Origin: Heptranchias perlo
Taxonomy: Eukaryota
NCBI RefSeq assembly: GCF_035084215.1
Contig: NC_090358.1
Span: forward strand, 14,322,001 to 14,386,000
Length of the DNA stretch: 64,000 bases
Direction: 5' to 3'
Shown piece by piece: positions 46,380 to 64,000 of the stretch. Every line of letters starts with the position of its first letter. The first letter of the stretch is position 1. The position numbers and the translations under genes were made by a program. Below the pieces are notes generated by a model. That model was not told where the DNA came from and did no database searches. It was given only the letters and a program-made list of their open reading frames with translations.

Positions 46380-47231
46380 TGAATTGAGGTGAAGCTTTTA
46401 AGTAGAGATGACAAGTAATTTAATGGCCAGTGGAATCAATAAAATTTGTTCCAGTCCTGTAACAGGTAAATATTCCAGAGCTTTTATGGTGGTACATTTT
46501 TATCCTTTAACAAACCAACTGGTCTAGTTGCAGGGTTAGGTGAGGGGAGGGGGGAGAGTTAACTCTCTCCCTTCCCAGAGCCCATCCTTCTTTATCACTT
46601 TGTGGCACTTGTCATGGGGGTATCGAGATTTCCTCAGTGCAGCAGTTATAGTAAAGTTGTAAACCCCTTTTTAAAAAAAGCATTTACAATTCTGTCACAC
46701 CTGCACAGAGGAAATTCCACCCAATTTCCAACAAGTTCTCCTCCAGCTGGGACTTTGGTATGGTCTAGGCCTCAGGCTTGTTTGTGGTCAGCAATGAGTT
46801 ATGAATGGCCATTAAGAAGTGCATTCGGGTGATATCGGGTCTGATCATTTTGTTTTTATTTCTTTCACGAAGTGCTTGCTCTATCTGGCATTGTATTTAG
46901 TGGCTCCACCACCAGCTGACAAATCCTACCCAATACGGGCAAGTGAGCAGAAATGACAGTCTGTGCTTCAAATTTGTGTTCTCCTGCTTTGTACCCAAAT
47001 GTTCCTAGTGCCCTTGTTACCAAGCCCCAAATCACTTCTGTTAATGAATTTTCTCAGTCTATTTCTTTCTGCTCATCAGTCGCGTTCCCCCCAATCTCAA
47101 CCCCACTTCCCCCCCGACACAGAGTATTTCTGGAATATCTACCAGTTACAGGACTGGATTAAATTTAATTGATTCCACTAGCCATTAAATTACTTAATGC
47201 CATCTCTACTTAAAAGGTTCACTTCAATTCA
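46380..47231. repeat. ~100-bp inverted repeat (46380-46479 / 47129-47231) around a ~650-bp spacer
   Basis: Manual alignment gives about 9 mismatches and one 3-nt indel over 100 bp. Confidence 0.9.
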
Positions 47232-47232
47232 G

Positions 47233-47643
47233 GTGTCAGCTGTGGCTTAGTGGCAGCACTCTCGCTTCTGAGTCAGAGGGTTGTGGGTTCAAGTCCCACT
47301 CCAGAGCATTGAGCACAAAATCTAGTACTGAGGGAGTGCTGCACTGTCGGAGGTGTGCCGTCTTTCAAATGAGACCGGTTAAACCGAGGCCCTGTCTGCT
47401 TCTCAGGTGGACTAGAAGAGCAAGGGAGTTATCCCCGGAGTCCGACCAATATTTATCCTTCAACCAACATCACTAAAACAGATTAACTATCACATTGCTG
47501 TTTGTGAGACCTTGTGTGTAAATTGGTTGCCGCATTTCCTATATTACAACAGTAACAACACTTCAAAAGTACTTAATTGGCTGTAAGGTGCGATGGGACT
47601 TCTTGAGGTCATGGTAGGCGCTGTATAAATGCAAATTTTTTTT
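47233..47643 (+). mobile_element. DeuSINE (SacSINE1-like), near full length
   Basis: A and B boxes (tggcttagtgg, gggttcaagtccc), Deu core tactgagggagtgctgcactgtcggaggtg, and an L2-like tail. Confidence 0.87.
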
Positions 47644-48769
47644 ATACTTCACTGAGGAATTGAGAAAATTCTCAGGGTAAACTATAATTTAATTGGAAAA
47701 TCAATGCAACAAAATGTACAATGAGACATTTACAATAAACTCTGTGTAAATGTTGCCTTTATGAATCATATGAATTATAATTAGGAGTTGATGAACGTGA
47801 CAAAATATGTAACTAGGACTGGAACTAGTAATTTTGCAAAATTAATTGTATTCCGTGTATAAAGTGAGGATAGAGAGAAAGTAATTTGAATATTTAATTT
47901 CTCAATTAAAAGGGATAGTCTGATTTTTACTGCAGAGGGAAAAACTGCACCAACTTGTTGAATATGTGGAAAATTCCTACTCTGGGGTTTATTGCACAAG
48001 TTCATTTCTTATCCTTTCATTGATGCAATCTTCATAGTACATTAATATAGACTAAAATGCAGCTTTTTTTCCAGCACTAAATGTGTGATGGTTGCTCCTG
48101 CTGACTGGAATTGTCATTCCATATGTTGCAAGTCCCTTTCTCCAAAAAAAAATTAATTCTTCTTTTGCAATACTTGAAGACATCATTATTTTAAGTGCTT
48201 CAAGCTATGCAGAATTAATTTGATATTCCCCACCCTGTTTTGTAAAACTCCTCAGCCTGAACCACACCTTAATTTTTTTCTCTCTCATTACCAACAGTTT
48301 GCACTATTGCCTTTGTAACAATCATTATAGAAGATTGTTAGTGATCTGTCTTGACAAAGATCCCTAAATAACACTGGGCAGTTGCAGGGATAGTGGTTAG
48401 AATTGTTGGTAGTTGCAGGGAATACTTTTCTTGCAGGTCTTTCTCCCTTCAATGGCATTTCAGTTTTAATCAGCTGCATGTTTTAAAGTATCAGTGTTCT
48501 ACCCTTTTTGCCCTGCTTAACAGCAAAGCCAAATGTACAACTGGCCATTGTAACAGCTGATCTTATTGTCTTTGAAAGTCACCAGCTCCATGGTCCAGAC
48601 TCATATTTTAACAAGTACCAATCAGCTCAGCATCTGTAAAGTGCAGCTACCTGGCGACTGTAACCAGTTGTTAGTCATCAGGTAGAAATTTCCTTTACTG
48701 TTAGGTGGCTGAGAGAGAGTCAGATCGCTCACACTTCAAAACAAGCTGCTGATTAAAGCACTGATGGGG

Positions 48770-49222
48770 AAAGAAAGAAAACTTGCATTTATATAGCACC
48801 TATCATGTCCTCAAGACGTCCCAAAGCACCTTACAGCCAATGAAGTGCTTTTGAAGTGTAGTCTCTGTTGTAATGTAGGAAATGTGGCAGTCAGTTTGCG
48901 CACAGCAAGGTCCCACAAACAGCAATGAGATAATGACCAAATAATCTGTTTTCGTAATGATGTAGATTGAAGGATAAATATTGGCCAGGAGAGAACTCCC
49001 CTGCTTTTCGGAATAGTGCCATTGGATCTTTAGCGTCCACCTGAGAAGAGAGACGTGGCCTTGATTTTAACATCTCATCCGAAAGACCGCACCTCTGACA
49101 GTGCAGTACTCCCTCAGTACTGCACTTGTCAGCCTTGATTTTGTGCACAAGTCTTTGGAGTGGGACTTGAACCTATATCCTTCTGCCTCAGGCAAGAGTT
49201 CTACCACTAAGCTACAGCTGGC
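48770..49222 (-). mobile_element. DeuSINE (SacSINE1-like), near full length
   Basis: Reverse-complement homologue of 47233-47643. Confidence 0.87.
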
Positions 49223-56515: not shown

Positions 56516-57710
56516 CCTGTTGAGGTTTCAGCTGTAAATTGTGCTTTAAGCTGTATACTGCACTTTAATTATGCATGCGAGGTAATCAAAGGGCTGTAAG
56601 GTTGGAGGTGTACTGCCCTCAACAAGAGTGTATGTGGGCCTCAACCTCCCCAATGGGTTGACGGGTGCCAGAGTTTCTTGTGAGGATGGACAGGTGGTTC
56701 TGAGATGGTCCAGAGATGAACCAGAGGTGGCACTTGGGACTGCTTGACCTAGGCAAAATGAGATGTCCTCTCTTTAACTCCAGATAAACTGGTGGGCTGG
56801 AAGGCACAGTTGTAGCAATAACCACCAGGATCACAGCCCGAGCAATTTCAGGGTCTCTGTTCTTAAGTGCAAAATGCAAATAAATGATTTCAACCAATTA
56901 AAAGATGTTATATTGAGGCTCATTAAAATGCATAATGTTCAGTTCACTTGTGATTTGTCATTTTTTTAATATATGTAAACCTTGGGGATTGTTTGCTGCT
57001 TTGCACAGTTTTTATTCTCGTCTGTGGTCTGCCTGTTATTTTTTATTCTGCGAAGAATACATGCAGATTCTGAGTGCAGACTGCCACCAATAAGCATGAA
57101 GGTCCATCGGGCATCAAGTATTTTTAGTTCATAAGAAATAGGAGCAGGAGAATACGGCCCCTCTAACATGCTCTGCCATTCAATCAGGTCATGGTCGATC
57201 TTCGACCTCAACTCCACTTTCCCGCCCAATCCCCATATCCCTTGATTTCCCCAGAGTCCAAAAATCTATCTATCTATCTCAGCCTTGAATATATTCAATG
57301 ACTCAGCATCCACAGCCCTCTGGGGTAGAGAATTCCAAAGATTCACAACCCTCTGCATGAAGAAATTCCTCCTCATCTCAGTCTTAAATGGCCGACCCCA
57401 TATCCTGTGATTATGCCCCCTAGTTCTAGACTCCCTAACCAGGGGAAACAATCTCTCAGCATTTACCCTGTCAAGCCCCCTCATAATCTTATATGTTTCA
57501 ATGAGATCACCTCTCATTCTTCTACACTCCAGAGAGTATAGGCCCATTCTACTCGATCTCTCCTCATAGGACAAGCCTATCATTCCAGGAATTAGTCTAG
57601 TGAACCTTTGTTGCACCACCTCTAAGGCAAGTATATCCTTCCTCAGATAAGGAGACCAAAACTATACACAGTTCTCCAGGTGTGGTGTCACCAAAGCCAT
57701 GTATAACTGT

Positions 57711-57835
57711 GATGTGGAGATGCCGGTGATGGACTGGCGAAGGAGATAATCACCTGACGAAGGAGATAATCTCCGAAAGCTTGTGATTTTCAAATAAAAC
57801 TGTTGGACTATAACCTGGTGTTGTAAGATTCCTTA
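57711..57835 (-). mobile_element. Miniature PLE insertion (tail plus inverted hammerhead segment)
   Basis: TSD catgtataactgt at 57698-57710 and 57836-57848. 57710-57737 is the reverse complement of tail 61983-62010. 57748-57838 matches 61883-61973 with a few substitutions. Confidence 0.92.
57748..57788 (+). ncRNA. Minimal hammerhead ribozyme motif in the miniature PLE insertion
   Basis: AAUCAC-CUGACGA-A-GGAG-AUAAU-CUCC-GAAA-GCUU-GUGAUU, with a fully Watson-Crick stem I. Confidence 0.88.
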
Positions 57836-58088
57836 CATGTATAACTGTAGTAAGACTTCCTTACTCTTGTACTCTAACCCCCTTGCAATAAAGGCCAACA
57901 TGCCATTTGCCTTCCTAATTGCCTGCTGTACTTACACTTTCTGTGCTTCTTGTGCGAGGACACCCAAGCCTCTCAACACCAACATTTAATAGTTTCTCAC
58001 CATTCCAAAAATATTCTGCTTTTCTATTCTTCCTACCAAAGTAAGGAATCTTACAACACCAGGTTATAGTCCAACAAATTTATTTTAA

Positions 58089-58129
58089 AATCACAAGCTT
58101 TCGGAGATTATCTCCTTCGTCAGATGATT
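58089..58129 (-). ncRNA. Minimal hammerhead ribozyme motif, mirror copy in the left arm
   Basis: Exact reverse complement of 61883-61923. Confidence 0.88.
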
Positions 58130-58365
58130 GAATGAAAAGGTTCTCAAATCGCATATCTTATACGATGTTGGGACAGCATCACACCAATCAAAAGGTGTCG
58201 TTGTTATTCAAACAGGCCAGTCACGGAGAACAGCACGTCCCAGTACACTCGATATACATTGTGTCTTTTACACAGGCAGGCAGAAAGAAACTTAAAATGG
58301 CAGAGAGAGAGAGAGAGAGAATTTTAAAAAACATATAAATTTTTTCCCCCTTTTTGCTGGTGGGG

Positions 58366-59804
58366 TTACGTGTAGCGTGACATGAACCCAAGATCCCGGT
58401 TGAGGCCGTCCTCATGGGTGCGGAACTTGGCTATCAACTTCTGCTCGACGATTTTGCGTTGTCGTGTGTCTCAAAGGCCGCCTTGGAGAACGCTTACCCG
58501 AAGATCGGTGGCTGAATGTCCTTGACTGCTAAAGTGTTCCCCGACTGGGAGGGAACCCTCCTGTTTGGCGATTGTTGCGCGGTGTCCGTTCATCCGTTGT
58601 CGCAGCGTCTGCATGGTCTCGCCAATGTACCATGCTCCGGGGCATCCTTTCCTGCAACGTATGAGGTAAACAACGTTGGCCGAGTCACAGGAGTATGAAC
58701 CATGTACCTGGTGGGTGGTGTCCTCTCGTGTGATGGTGGTATCCGTGTCGATGATCTGGCATGTCTTGCAGAGGTTGCCGTGGCAGGGTTGTGTGGTGTC
58801 GTGGACGCTGTTCTCCTGAAAACTGGGTAACTTGCTGCGAACGATGGTCTGTTTGAGGTTGGGTGGCTGTTTAAAGGCGAGCAGTGGAGGCGTGGGGATG
58901 GCCTTAGCGAGGTGTTCGTCGTCATCGATGACATGTTGAAGGCTGCGGAGAACATGGTGTAGTTTCTCCGCTCCAGGGAAGTACTGGACGACGAAGGGTA
59001 CTCTGTTGGTTGCGTCCCGTGTTTGTCTTCTGAGGAGGTCTATGCGATTCTTCGCTGTGGCCCGTCGGAACTGTCGATCGACAAGTCGAGCGTCATATCC
59101 CGTTCTTACGAGGGCGTCTTTCAGCGTCTGTAGGTGTCCATCGCGTTCCTCCTCGTCTGAGCAGATCCTGTGTATTCGTAGGGCCTGTCCATAGGGGATG
59201 GCCTCTTTGACGTGGTTGGGGTGGAAGCTGGAAAGGTGGAGCATCGTGAGGTTGTCCGTGGGCTTGCGGTAGAGTGAGGTGCTGAGGTGCCCGTCTTTGA
59301 TGGAGATTTGTGTGTCCAAGAAAGAAACCGATTCTGAGGAGTAGTCCATGGTGAGTTTGATGGTGGGATGGAACTTGTTGATGTTATCGTGTAGTCTCTT
59401 CAGTGATTCTTCGCCGTGGGTCCATAGGAAGAAAATGTCGTCGATGTATCTGGTGTATAGTGTTGGTTGGAGGTCCTGTGCAGTGAAGAAGTCGTGCTCG
59501 AACTTGTGCATGAAAATGTTGGCGTATTGGGGTGCGAATTTGGTCCCCATGGCTGTTCCGTGTGTTTGGGTAAAGAACTGGTTATTGAAGGTGAAGACAT
59601 TGTGATCCAGGATGAAGCGGATGAGTTGTAGGATGGCGTCTGGAGATTGGCTGTTGTTGGTGTTGAGTACTGAGGCTGTTGCAGCGATGCCGTCATCGTG
59701 GGGGATACTGGTGTATAGTGCCGAGACGTCCATCGTGGTGAGAAGTGTTCCTGGTTCAACTGGTCCGTGGGTGCTGAGTTTTTGTAGGAAGTCTGTAGTG
59801 TCGC
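58366..59804 (-). pseudogene. Inverted, more truncated copy of the same PLE RT-GIY-YIG ORF
   Basis: Track ORF 58471..59733(-) matches the + copy except HDNIN/HDIIN and LHLSS/LHFSS. The same premature TGA is at 58471-58473. Confidence 0.93.
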
Positions 59805-61646
59805 AACGCCATCAACGCTCTCAAGACCAACCGAAACATCGTCATCAAACCAGCGGACAAAGGAGGAGCCATTGTCATACAGAACAGAACGGACTATTGC
59901 AAAGAAGCATACCGACAACTGGACAACCAGGAACACTACAGACGGTTACCCGCAGATCCGACCAAAGAACACACCCACCAGCTCAACAAACTGATCAAGA
60001 CCTTCGATCCAGACCTTCAAAGCATCCTACGCACTCTCATCCCACGTACTCCCCGCGTGGGTGACTTCTACTGCCTCCCAAAGATACACAAAGCCAACAC
60101 ACCCGGACGTCCTATCGTATCAGGCAATGGAACCCTGTGTGAGAACCTCTCTGGATACGTCGAGGGCATCCTGAAACCCATTGTACAGGGAACCCCCAGC
60201 TTCTGTCGCGACACTACAGACTTCCTACAAAAACTCAGCACCCACGGACCAGTTGAACCAGGAACACTTCTCACCACGATGGACGTCTCGGCACTATACA
60301 CCAGTATCCCCCACGATGACGGCATCGCTGCAACAGCCTCAGTACTCAACACCAACAACAGCCAATCTCCAGACGCCATCCTACAACTCATCCGCTTCAT
60401 CCTGGATCACAATGTCTTCACCTTCAATAACCAGTTCTTTACCCAAACACACGGAACAGCCATGGGGACCAAATTCGCACCCCAATACGCCAACATTTTC
60501 ATGCACAAGTTCGAGCACGACTTCTTCACTGCACAGGACCTCCAACCAACACTATACACCAGATACATCGACGACATTTTCTTCCTATGGACCCACGGCG
60601 AAGAATCACTGAAGAGACTACACGATATCATCAACAAGTTCCATCCCACCATCAAACTCACCATGGACTACTCCTCAGAATCGGTTTCTTTCTTGGACAC
60701 ACAAATCTCCATCAAAGACGGGCACCTCAGCACCTCACTCTACCGCAAGCCCACGGACAACCTCACGATGCTCCACTTTTCCAGCTTCCACCCCAACCAC
60801 GTCAAAGAGGCCATCCCCTATGGACAGGCCCTACGAATACACAGGATCTGCTCAGACGAGGAGGAACGCGATGGACACCTACAGACGCTGAAAGACGCCC
60901 TCGTAAGAACGGGATATGACGCTCGACTTGTCGATCGACAGTTCCGACGGGCCACAGCGAAGAATCGCATAGACCTCCTCAGAAGACAAACACGGGACGC
61001 AACCAACAGAGTACCCTTCGTCGTCCAGTACTTCCCTGGAGCGGAGAAACTACACCATGTTCTCCGCAGCCTTCAACATGTCATCGATGACGACGAACAC
61101 CTCGCTAAGGCCATCCCCACGCCTCCACTGCTCGCCTTTAAACAGCCACCCAACCTCAAACAGACCATCGTTCGCAGCAAGTTACCCAGTTTTCAGGAGA
61201 ACAGCGTCCACGACACCACACAACCCTGCCACGGCAACCTCTGCAAGACATGCCAGATCATCGACACGGATACCACCATCACACGAGAGGACACCACCCA
61301 CCAGGTACATGGTTCATACTCCTGTGACTCGGCCAACGTTGTTTACCTCATACGTTGCAGGAAAGGATGCCCCGGAGCATGGTACATTGGCGAGACCATG
61401 CAGACGCTGCGACAACGGATGAACGGACACCGCGCAACAATCGCCAAACAGGAGGGTTCCCTCCCAGTCGGGGAACACTTTAGCAGTCAAGGACATTCAG
61501 CCACCGATCTTCGGGTAAGCGTTCTCCAAGGCGGCCTTTGAGACACACGACAACGCAAAATCGTCGAGCAGAAGTTGATAGCCAAGTTCCGCACCCATGA
61601 GGATGGCCTCAACCGGGATCTTGGGTTCATGTCACGCTACACGTAA
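59802..61646 (+). pseudogene. 5'-truncated PLE polyprotein: reverse transcriptase, Cys-rich linker and GIY-YIG endonuclease, with one premature TGA at 61539-61541
   Basis: The frame is open from RNAINALKTNRNIVIKPADKGG. Motifs: FYCLPKIHK, GRPIVS, MDVSALYTSIP, GTAMG, RYIDDIF, FLD, CHGNLCKTC, NVVYLIRC..C..YIGET, RMNGHR, VGEHF. After the TGA it continues DTRQRKIVEQKLIAKFRTHEDGLNRDLGFMSRYT*. Confidence 0.93.
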
Positions 61647-61882
61647 CCCCACCAGCAAAAAGGGGGAAAAAATTTATATGTTTTTTAAAATTCTCTCTCT
61701 CTCTCTCTCTGCCATTTTAAGTTTCTTTCTGCCTGCCTGTGTAAAAGACACAATGTATATCGAGTGTACTGGGACGTGCTGTTCTCCGTGACTGGCCTGT
61801 TTGAATAACAACGACACCTTTTGATTGGTGTGATGCTGTCCCAACATCGTATAAGATATGCGATTTGAGAACCTTTTCATTC

Positions 61883-61923
61883 AATCATCTGACGAAGGAG
61901 ATAATCTCCGAAAGCTTGTGATT
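61883..61923 (+). ncRNA. Minimal type I hammerhead ribozyme motif in the PLE terminal repeat
   Basis: AAUCAU-CUGACGA-A-GGAG-AUAAU-CUCC-GAAA-GCUU-GUGAUU. Stem I is AAUCAU/GUGAUU, the core is CUGANGA and GAAA, stem II is GGAG/CUCC, and stem III is loopless and palindromic (AAGCUU). Predicted cleavage after 61917. Confidence 0.88.
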
Positions 61924-61927
61924 TTAA

Positions 61928-61933
61928 AATAAA
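61928..61933 (+). promoter_or_regulatory. AATAAA polyadenylation-type signal of the PLE terminal repeat (also at 57793-57798)
   Basis: The hexamer is kept in both PLE variants although the flanking bases differ. It is followed by a GT-rich tggtgttgt. Usage is not shown. Confidence 0.5.
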
Positions 61934-64000
61934 TTTGTTGGACTATAACCTGGTGTTGTAAGATTCCTTACATTTGTCCACCCCAGTCCATCACCGGCAT
62001 CTCCACATCATCCTACCAAAGTGAATAACCTCACATTTCCCCACATCATACTCCATCTCCCACCTTCTTGCCCACTCACTTAACCTGTCTATATCCCTTT
62101 GCAGACCTTTGTGTCCTCCTCACAGCTTGCTCTTCTCTTGACTATTGAACCTTAACCTGGTTACCATTGCAATTGCCTTGCTTTGGGTGGCTCAGTTTGG
62201 TACCAACAAATAAGCTAGGATTTGACAAACTAATTCAGCAAGTGAAACTTGCTTTGTAGCTACAGCCCTTTACATAGCTTCAGCAGCACATTGAAATTCT
62301 GTCTCTGCACTTGAGCACTCCCACTGGGTAACCAGGATATTGTCTTGCATATTTAATTAACCCCAAACCTAGGCATCCAGGTGCAATAAATTATGCAGGG
62401 GGCCTGCTGCCCACCATTCCTGTTGACATTGTGTCTATCCTTACAAGTGAAGAGATGGTTTGTGAAATGACTCCATGTTAAAATTTCAATATAGTCAGAC
62501 TGGATAGAATTAACAAGGAGAACAGATAACAGACAGGCGTATTTAGCTCCCATCACTATAACAGGAGGATAAGTTGTAATTGTGAATTATTACTTGATTT
62601 GACAGCAATTCCTGCACAATAATAGTTTAATTCAACATGTCAGATTTGTTGATGGCACAAAAATCTTCTTTTGATTTGTACAGTTATATTTAATGTCCTT
62701 TGACAGGAAGCTCACACTGTGCAATTTAAAAGCAAAAATCAAGAGAATTTTCCTTTCATGGATATTCAAAGTAATTTTCAAGATGACTGTTGCTGAATGA
62801 GTAATGCATTGCATTTTTAACAAGTTTCATTTTTACTTGAAAATCAGAAATGGAAGATTGCCCATTTTTCTCCATAATTAATGATCCATTAACAAAATTG
62901 CAGGAACACACAGCTTTGAACAGTGCAATGTTTAAGATTTTATTAGCTGGCTGTTAAATGTGGATAAAATCCATGTTTCACCAAGAGGAATTCCACCCCA
63001 TATGTTCCATTAGGTTAAATCTAATACCTATTTTCTGATCTTTTTCTAAGTTACTTATGGATTGACTTGTATGGGCACTTAGCTGCAATAAATCGAAGTG
63101 TTTTTTTGGTTTCTATTACTAAGTAAGTTAATGTTCTTTTAAACAATTTCTATATATGGTCGTTTGCACATCTACACGCATGTGTTAGACTTTTGTTTAT
63201 TAGATTTTATAAACAAAGTGATTTTTTTTTTACGTCACTGTTGGCTTTTGGTTTACAAGGGGGCCAGATGTACATATCAGCTAATCCTCATTTTAAATAC
63301 TCTAGTATCTCTTTTGAAAAATACCTAGGTTGTAATTTAGTACTGTTCCATAACAAATAAACAAATGTTGTTCTAAATAATCTAAGCTTCTGAAGAGGGA
63401 AAAGAAAATTTCCTAATTCAGTCATCAGTTTTTTTTTCTGGTTGTACTCGAAGCAGTTTGGCTTTGAATTGAAGTTGATTTTTCCCTCCTATAATGGCAG
63501 TGCAAATGTTGCCAAATAGATATCCAGAAAGGTGTGAAATTGGATTTATTCCTCCAGATTGGCTGTTCTTGTGCCAGCTAGGACTTGTATTGGTTCTCAT
63601 AACAATAGTCCTGCCCAACTGTAACGTGGTTTAACTCATTTTTGATCTCATGGGTTTGACTCTGATAGCTGCTAGGCATGTAGATAGACTGAGATAAATT
63701 GTATTGGGTACCATTGGGCAAGTCCCAAATTTCTCATCGTTTAATGCTTTTTTTAATAACCTGCAAGTTATGGTTTAATATGCATTTTCATTTTTACCCA
63801 TGGGGAACAGAGTTCTAACCTAGTACATTATTTTGTTCAGAATTCCACAGGTAGGGGAGAAAAGGAATAACAGTGTATGCTTGCAACATTTTGTGGAGTG
63901 TGGGCTGGTTAGGTATGACTGGTTTGGTTATGATGTTTGGTTGGTTGCCTAATGGACTCCATAGTCTTTCATGAAATCAGCTAGAGAGTTCTCCCTCTTT

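Follow-up and report, generated by a model that had tools for sequence, protein, structure and literature searches.

We investigated a 64,000-nucleotide stretch of the Heptranchias perlo genome (contig NC_090358.1, positions 14,322,001 to 14,386,000; hereafter, the window), in which one large and one small insertion lie approximately 180 bp apart. Both are head-to-head copies of a Neptune-type Penelope-like element (PLE), and both are flanked by target-site duplications (TSDs) of 12 bp (Table 1). The host sequence around them is presumably a CR1 long interspersed nuclear element (LINE), to judge from the look of the minus-strand frame at 57266-57661; CR1-like repeats seem to surround both insertions (window 57100-62080) and many of the other loci fetched.

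The TSD copies of the large insertion, TCCTACCAAAGT, are exactly 12 bp long and are separated by 3,968 bp (3,970 bp with the shared GT included). Between them lie two arms with outward-facing 3' ends, the minus arm ending in TTCCTT(AC) and the plus arm in CCACATCA(T), which differ at 3 of 1,746 aligned positions and overlap by 3 nt at their junction. The small insertion has 126 bp between its copies of ATGTATAACTGT (12 bp, or 13 with a chance C), and comprises an inverted tail of 28 nt and an arm of 91 nt from an older subfamily, separated by 10 nt of filler; the arm ends in TTCCTTAC(AT). Each insertion therefore carries one end of the form TTCCTTAC (site 1) and one of the form CCACATCA (site 2), with target overlaps of 1-2 nt. 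As their sequences and TSDs differ, the insertions are independent events; the original prediction, made from this window alone, had proposed this independence, the two common end points and the short overlaps, and is borne out in all three. The two arms of the small insertion have no sequence in common, so neither was copied from the other. The premature stop that closes the 580-amino-acid (aa) frame of the large insertion is found in both of its arms and is rare in the family, with T in 3 of 75 matching sites among the fetched loci.

Table 1. Features of the two insertions, in window coordinates. Signed positions count the A of the start ATG (window 62010) as +1. ORF, open reading frame; RT, reverse transcriptase; pLTR, pseudo-long terminal repeat.
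Feature	Position	Strand	Basis or remark
Small insertion, left TSD copy (ATGTATAACTGT)	57699..57710	+	matching copy at 57837
Small insertion, site-2 arm, tail only (-27 to +1)	57710..57737	-	28/28 identical to 61983-62010
Templated filler of 10 nt at arm junction, repeating hammerhead stretch	57738..57747	+	sequence
Small insertion, site-1 arm, older subfamily, ending TTCCTTAC(AT)	57748..57838	+	96% to 61883-61973
Hammerhead-like core in site-1 arm of small insertion	57748..57788	+	sequence
Small insertion, right TSD copy	57837..57848	+	
Large insertion, left TSD copy (TCCTACCAAAGT)	58031..58042	+	
Large insertion, site-1 arm, 5'-truncated, 3' end towards left TSD	58041..59804	-	register -40, 2-nt overlap
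Open frame of 580 aa: telomerase-like RT, Cys linker, GIY-YIG	59799..61541	+	ends at premature stop
Overlap of 3 nt between head-to-head arms of large insertion	59802..59804	.	
Large insertion, site-2 arm, 5'-truncated, with tail	59802..62011	+	register +2, 1-nt overlap
TATA-like box (-160), predicted pLTR promoter	61850..61857	+	sequence; similarly spaced TATA-like words in five reference copies
Initiator-like TCATTC (A at -131), predicted RNA 5' end and short-arm run-off	61877..61882	+	inferred
Minimal type-I hammerhead-like motif: CUGACGA, stem II, GAAA, palindromic AGCU	61883..61923	+	sequence and fold
Predicted RNA stem-loop; site-1 mode inside unpaired stretch 61973-61977	61936..61993	+	fold
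Site 1 window (-42 to -32, mode -37)	61968..61978	+	n=64
AC-rich tail between sites, ending on A of start ATG (site 2, mode +2)	61972..62010	+	
Large insertion, right TSD copy	62011..62022	+	

The same pair of end sites recurs across the genome. Exact 29-mers number 23,135 just upstream of site 1, 8,826 across site 1 and 186 across site 2 into the ORF, the last count being lowered by ORF divergence among subfamilies. For 64 pairs of arms with an exact 12-bp TSD, we defined the register of each end as the RNA position aligned with the first TSD base. Site-1 registers run from -42 to -32 with a mode at -37 (51 of 64 within -39 to -35), and site-2 registers from -4 to +9, with 28 of 64 at +2; the histogram of junctions thus has two peaks, whose modes are equivalent to window 61973 and 62011, with a median spacing of 38 nt. 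Each site is a window of about ±3 nt and not a single point, and, as the two registers do not covary, a rigid ruler of 39 nt between them is ruled out. Loose contig ends cluster at +2/+3 in four of four runs from four organisms, each run being either RNA or DNA, and site 2 is therefore common to relatives; clear loose ends at site 1 occur in only one of the four (with one contig in a second), and no support is drawn from them.

We identified a near-obligate rule in how the two sites are combined. Our blind sample, drawn regardless of ends, comprised 72 loci from the first 100 anchor hits, 41 from a list of short pairs and 45 from three further patterns, with 19 duplicate pairs removed. The initial loci, consisting only of tail-bearing copies, were left out of the blind counts, as were sets T (40/40) and X (14/14), which had been selected for one read-through arm; these two sets were included in the tallies of TSDs, registers, motifs and arm lengths. 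Among 121 adjacent head-to-head arm pairs in the blind sample, 116 joined site 1 to site 2, five joined site 1 to site 1, and none joined site 2 to site 2. Three of the five exceptions (L080, L102, L262) lack a TSD of at least 10 bp, a fourth (L268) is a tail with an internal deletion, and one (L263) is genuine. When only pairs closed by a TSD of at least 10 bp were counted, 98 of 99 were mixed, with one double site-1 pair and no double tail; independent choice of sites would be expected to give mixed pairs in approximately half.

Two further samples show the same rule. We examined 44 loci that include the start of the ORF, 40 from the first 100 in the list and 4 found earlier; all 12 of their TSD-closed pairs were mixed, with the tail on the direct arm in 10 and on the inverted arm in 2. 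Genome-wide, we found 2,529 short pairs (117-147-bp gap), of which 875 + 875 have one arm reading through site 1 and 18 have both, against approximately 303 expected, a rough figure as the patterns differ in length; six of the 18 were inspected, and proved to be five site-1 ends with the target matching the RNA to -28, and one with an arm into the ORF. The sequence of the target predicts which end is assigned to which site only weakly (29 versus 17 of 64, p = 0.018). It had been proposed that each target strand uses one site. What we observe is one of each per insertion, and both sites occur on longer and shorter, on direct and inverted arms.

The target shows a fixed stagger and a loose symmetry. 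In 149 mixed pairs from the blind and selected sets, the exact TSD measured 10 bp in 9, 11 in 12, 12 in 64, 13 in 40, 14 in 16, 15 in 6, 16 in 1 and 17 in 1, leaving aside 21 more mixed pairs with fewer than 10 exact TSD bases. The counts from 12 bp upwards fit a fixed length of 12 with chance extension (expected 68, 37, 15, 5, 2, 1). With element 3' ends on both sides of the TSD, the standard geometry of target-primed reverse transcription (TPRT) would imply 12-nt 3' overhangs. In 63 rebuilt empty sites, G-R-C-A-G-T-G is favoured 3' of the TSD on each strand (126 half-sites, chi-square p 1e-2 to 1e-14), position 1 being conditioned by the definition of the TSD. When a matrix of positions 2-7 was trained on either side and applied to the opposite one, scores exceeded the control both ways, with a peak only at offset 0, although the control windows overlap, which makes the p values optimistic. 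The preference is also present in 39 held-out sites (13-mers).

Target and RNA match at both ends. At site 1, TSD positions 1-5 match the continuation of the RNA in 48, 41, 35, 33 and 43 of 64 pairs (permuted 26, 20, 22, 17, 22), and at site 2 in 43, 37, 33, 24 and 35 (permuted 29, 14, 16, 16, 21). For positions 2-5 this gives 152 matches versus 81 at site 1 and 129 versus 67 at site 2 (permutation p = 2e-4), and the matching fades past position 5-7. Thus, the register follows the target sequence. The end points had been predicted to be fixed, some 39 nt apart, and to be dual priming sites. Two sites at nearly this spacing are indeed used, and the pairing rule speaks for the second claim; "fixed" was too strong a word for windows tuned by pairing with the target, and the priming is read from DNA.

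Among the 44 blind pairs of set U1, both arms were short in 25, both long in 15 and of mixed length in 4 (L091 may be a fifth), so that length classes agree in 40 of 44 (Fisher p = 7e-8). In 12 of 12 long pairs, each arm resembles its partner more than it does the median other copy. Filler is present in 80 of 159 arm junctions, and among the other 79 an overlap of at least 3 nt occurs in 36, against 5 expected. The furthest 5' end lies at -120 to -137 in 21 of 25 short pairs, counted by eye; the TATA-like box and the initiator-like TCATTC suggest run-off at the RNA start, and short elements would then arise when priming takes place in the first pLTR. Cleavage by the hammerhead was considered as the source of the 5' ends of short arms and rejected, as there is no pile-up near the predicted cleavage point at approximately -93.

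Other structures were noted among the same copies. Two single-arm site-1 copies, L089 and L106, carry 5-7-nt inverted tail stubs beside the far TSD, which suggests aborted priming at site 2. Six mini-tandems (L275, L282, L283, L290, L300, L309) consist of a pLTR that extends 46-107 nt into the ORF and of a further pLTR piece behind it; they look like cDNA that reached the RNA 5' end and jumped to a site just inside the ORF, and partial tandems and promoter regeneration may have originated by such jumping.

Within the leader, the unpaired stretch of the predicted stem-loop, -37 to -33, coincides with the site-1 mode (fold z = -2.3, with 3 of 200 shuffles equally stable). The region containing site 1 and the tail (61938-62010) is nearly invariant in comparison with L107, L123, L096 and L132, despite upstream untranslated regions that do not align, and is consistent with a conserved cis-element. 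The hammerhead-like motif has a visible core and stems (z = -1.4); an Rfam scan of 57000-63000 returned no match, hammerhead included. It resembles the minimal PLE hammerheads of PMC4209133 in its type-I core, short helix I and palindromic helix III remnant, and differs from them in being predicted only and in the missing pile-up of arm 5' ends. Its stem II varies among subfamilies (GGAGA/TCTCC, GGGGA/TCTCC, GGAG-AAAG-CCTCC).

We examined the protein encoded by the element. An intact 891-aa ORF is present in three of three tandem copies translated from the genome (G000), and intact full-length copies read CCACATCATG into it (CCACATC-ATG), the ATG starting on the last A of CCACATCA; the suspicion that the tail end abuts the start codon was therefore correct. 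Pfam identifies an RVT_1 domain, and the protein has a confident predicted fold (mean pLDDT 88.6), its six best fold matches being TERTs. Pfam makes no GIY-YIG call on the 891-aa protein itself, PF01541 being present in many homologues, and the GIY-YIG/CCHH residues (Y792, C796, C800, Y805-G807, R816, H820, H836, E866) are kept in 42-44 of 44 aligned proteins. A search of PDB sequences with the family profile found no match. The nearest named relatives are shark proteins (96% and 86%), followed by turtle (approximately 45%).

Between RT and endonuclease (EN) lies a linker, C753-X4-C-XX-C, whose cysteines are present in 44 of 44 aligned proteins. A CX2-5CxxC linker in this position is the Neptune criterion of PMC8557442, and is common to Neptune and Nematis; in one survey, vertebrates contained only Neptune and Poseidon (bioRxiv 10.64898/2026.07.22.740005). 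Judged by its linker and its host range, the element is therefore of Neptune type, as the original prediction had it. It also shows the traits of EN+ PLEs, namely a single ORF with a telomerase-like RT and C-terminal GIY-YIG, and pLTRs arising from direct or inverted partial tandems with a 30-40-bp tail. A microsatellite insertion bias, attributed to Neptune as a tendency and not a strict criterion (PMC8557442), was not seen in the 63 empty sites, which are diverse (1 similar pair) and show the dyad preference instead.

Several observations lie outside these questions. Named host gene isoforms that cluster with the element ORF (P0128, P0140, P0150, P0157, P0168, P0176, P0020) probably reflect gene models into which PLE copies were absorbed. 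Six short inverted elements with a seemingly identical junction lie within 2 Mb (G000:C2:3603704, 3779906, 4387029, 4595457, 5406702, 5695893), and were probably spread by segmental duplication or a carrier repeat, not by independent insertion. L310 (G000:C6:66256500-66266499) is a multi-unit head-to-head tandem array, 100% identical and with several ORF units, and is a candidate for a very recent insertion. Elsewhere in the window, nested inverted repeat pairs at 46380-47231 and 47268-49191 are possibly a DNA transposon or inverted SINE (short interspersed element) copies.

We consider it probable that a protein dimer cuts a loose dyad with a 12-nt stagger, that both 3' overhangs prime on one RNA, one at each site, and that the resulting cDNA ends are joined. 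This is favoured by the one-of-each rule, the fixed 12-bp TSD, the dyad, the matching of target and RNA, the fact that either arm may be the longer, the covarying length classes and the microhomology at arm junctions. It is also favoured by the Anolis PLE protein studied in vitro, which cuts and extends both strands, starts at two sites that bound the tail, and has been modelled as a dimer (PMC11167929).

In such a reaction, two GIY-YIG domains would nick each strand just 5' of its loose GRCAGTG half-site, leaving 12-nt 3' overhangs; the TSD and the dyad are there to be seen, and from them we infer the dimer and the chemistry of the cuts. The last approximately 5 nt of each overhang would pair imperfectly with the RNA, in accordance with the excess matching observed, and would set the register either in site 1, the unpaired stretch of the predicted stem-loop, or in site 2, the AUG. 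Both cDNAs would then be extended in the direction of the RNA 5' end. From a primer in the first pLTR, arms of approximately 90 and 130 nt would result, with run-off at the predicted start (-131), and from one in the downstream pLTR the long arms, in line with the two length classes. Finally, the cDNA 3' ends would be joined through the microhomology or filler found at the junctions, and filled in. If one cDNA were aborted, a single-arm copy with or without a tail would result, and hence a tail that appears "optional".

Several points weigh against this account. Its support consists of genomic scars throughout, and it assumes strand displacement, as two cDNAs would share one overlapping template. 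The Anolis study reports that the start site is alike for both strands and non-homologous to the cut DNA (PMC11167929). The dyad is weak: the window sites each fit it on one side only, and both of their right halves score below background. Site-1 and site-2 registers are uncorrelated (rho -0.09, p = 0.46). Similar microhomology at both ends could come from end-joining, and the site-2 registers derive from a gapped alignment, which may slightly inflate the match counts. Gene conversion between inverted arms could account for the similarity of partner arms, and in young copies other copies are often as close as the partner. Finally, L263 is a true site-1/site-1 pair with a 12-bp TSD.

Both target ends could also prime, one per site, sequentially by a single protein or on two RNAs from the same source copy, which we judge unlikely. 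Provided that the first priming occludes or consumes its site, one of each, microhomology and TSD are explained equally well; the registers are uncorrelated, and the problem of a shared template is avoided. However, with two RNAs it would be hard to obtain the agreement of length classes in 40 of 44 pairs or to ensure one of each, and two nuclease domains account more simply for a symmetric dyad of fixed spacing.

Rather less probable is that an endonuclease resolves a transposition intermediate and leaves the tail in doing so, as PMC8557442 suggests; at most one end would then mark priming. If a DNA intermediate were cut with a stagger, one end with a tail and one without would follow naturally, and according to earlier work cited in PMC11167929 the fly enzyme cannot cut its own DNA without the tail. 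Resolution does not sit well with both ends varying over approximately 10 nt in step with target pairing, or with the element's own best dyad-like sites, which are not at the tail; moreover, the start sites observed in vitro already bound the tail (PMC11167929).

Head-to-head copies have been interpreted in print as products of self-priming on an antisense template (PMC3846280). Self-priming or fold-back of this kind, in which the first strand would serve as template for the second and repair would attach the second end, appears very improbable here. Many short pairs are near-palindromic, and rare variants are common to both arms; the near-palindromes are, however, accounted for by a common 5' stop. 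Among 163 mixed pairs, the site-1 arm extends further 5' in 66 and the site-2 arm in 57, with 40 ties within 3 nt, yet a copy cannot exceed its template. Further points against it are the arms of the small window insertion, which have no common sequence, and the possible tail stubs on single-arm site-1 copies. As the sole route, fold-back is already largely refuted. The least credible explanation is that sites are chosen independently and same-site pairs disappear later, through selection, collapse in the assembly or the instability of hairpins. Long perfect inverted repeats are indeed unstable, but site-1/site-1 pairs are no more palindromic than mixed pairs and yet number 1 in 99, and one of each holds from copies of approximately 130 bp to multi-kb ones and in young copies that are 99-100% identical.

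In LINE-1 (L1) twin priming, both target strands prime on one RNA, microhomology joins the cDNAs and the TSD is kept; the second primer anneals at variable upstream internal sites, and a minority of insertions thereby acquire an inversion without duplication. The double priming that we favour would work likewise, but with two defined neighbouring sites and with the same stretch copied twice. The L1 pattern of a variable upstream second site and inversion without duplication is not seen in this element, as its arms duplicate the same stretch.

In vitro, the Anolis carolinensis element Poseidon_Ac (PAc) cuts and extends both strands, with reverse transcription starting at two internal sites that bound an AC-rich tail; the hammerhead is not needed, and uncleaved RNA is used (PMC11167929). 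The shark element resembles PAc in having an RT with a C-terminal GIY-YIG and two end sites bounding an AC-rich tail. PAc, by contrast, belongs to the Penelope/Poseidon clade, its sites lie 111-118 nt inside the ORF and it prefers ATT, whereas the shark sites lie in the 5' leader with site 2 on the AUG. PAc is also reported to show no strand difference in start site and no target homology, whereas the shark element shows one of each (98/99), target matching of approximately 5 nt, a 12-bp TSD and a dyad. The original prediction had read this locus as a record of the Anolis mechanism; as that study found no strand difference in start site, what we describe goes beyond it.

Canonical EN+ PLE units likewise consist of head-to-head 5'-truncated copies and partial tandems with TSDs and a one-end tail of 30-40 bp (PMC8557442, PMC3846280). 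The tail, often at one end only, has been attributed to likely EN resolution (PMC8557442); in rotifers it was described on one inverted pLTR, with TSDs of 8-10 bp and antisense self-priming (PMC3846280). Where these sources call the one-sided tail optional or frequent, the shark element shows a near-obligate rule, counted genome-wide, and evidence against fold-back. Thus, the one-sided tail, the inverted copies and the two start sites in vitro have been described before. The literature that we searched, with older subscription papers outside its range, yielded no obligate one-of-each pairing, no 12-bp PLE TSD with a dyad target and no PLE twin priming; within the range of that search, the near-obligate pairing, the fixed stagger, the preference for a dyad and the pairing of the primers are all new.

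How tandem and inverted structures and the tail arise is, according to PMC8557442, the open problem of PLE biology, and the one in vitro study leaves strand usage and second-strand steps unresolved (PMC11167929). The pairing rule likely means that both cut strands prime the copying of one RNA, which would explain the long-puzzling one-sided tail of PLEs. This family offers thousands of natural events, and their use of one site of each kind, their fixed stagger, their dyad target and their primer pairing narrow down the mechanism. Intact natural ORFs, such as L133:1891-4566, a leader of 131 nt and a favoured target are available in addition, making PLE insertion directly testable. We suggest tentatively, as a conjecture that may well prove wrong, that symmetric double priming is the normal PLE route, in which a two-headed RT-nuclease would recognise a palindromic target, cut it with a fixed 12-nt stagger in the manner of a restriction enzyme and place the two overhangs on two dedicated sites of one RNA, the start codon of the element being one of these. 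If so, the tail, the inverted repeats and the abundant mini-elements would all be products of one reaction distinct from LINE/R2 TPRT. A TPRT variant that primes from both ends of a double-strand break would, if true, bear on the evolution of telomerase-like RTs and on tools for RNA-templated insertion.

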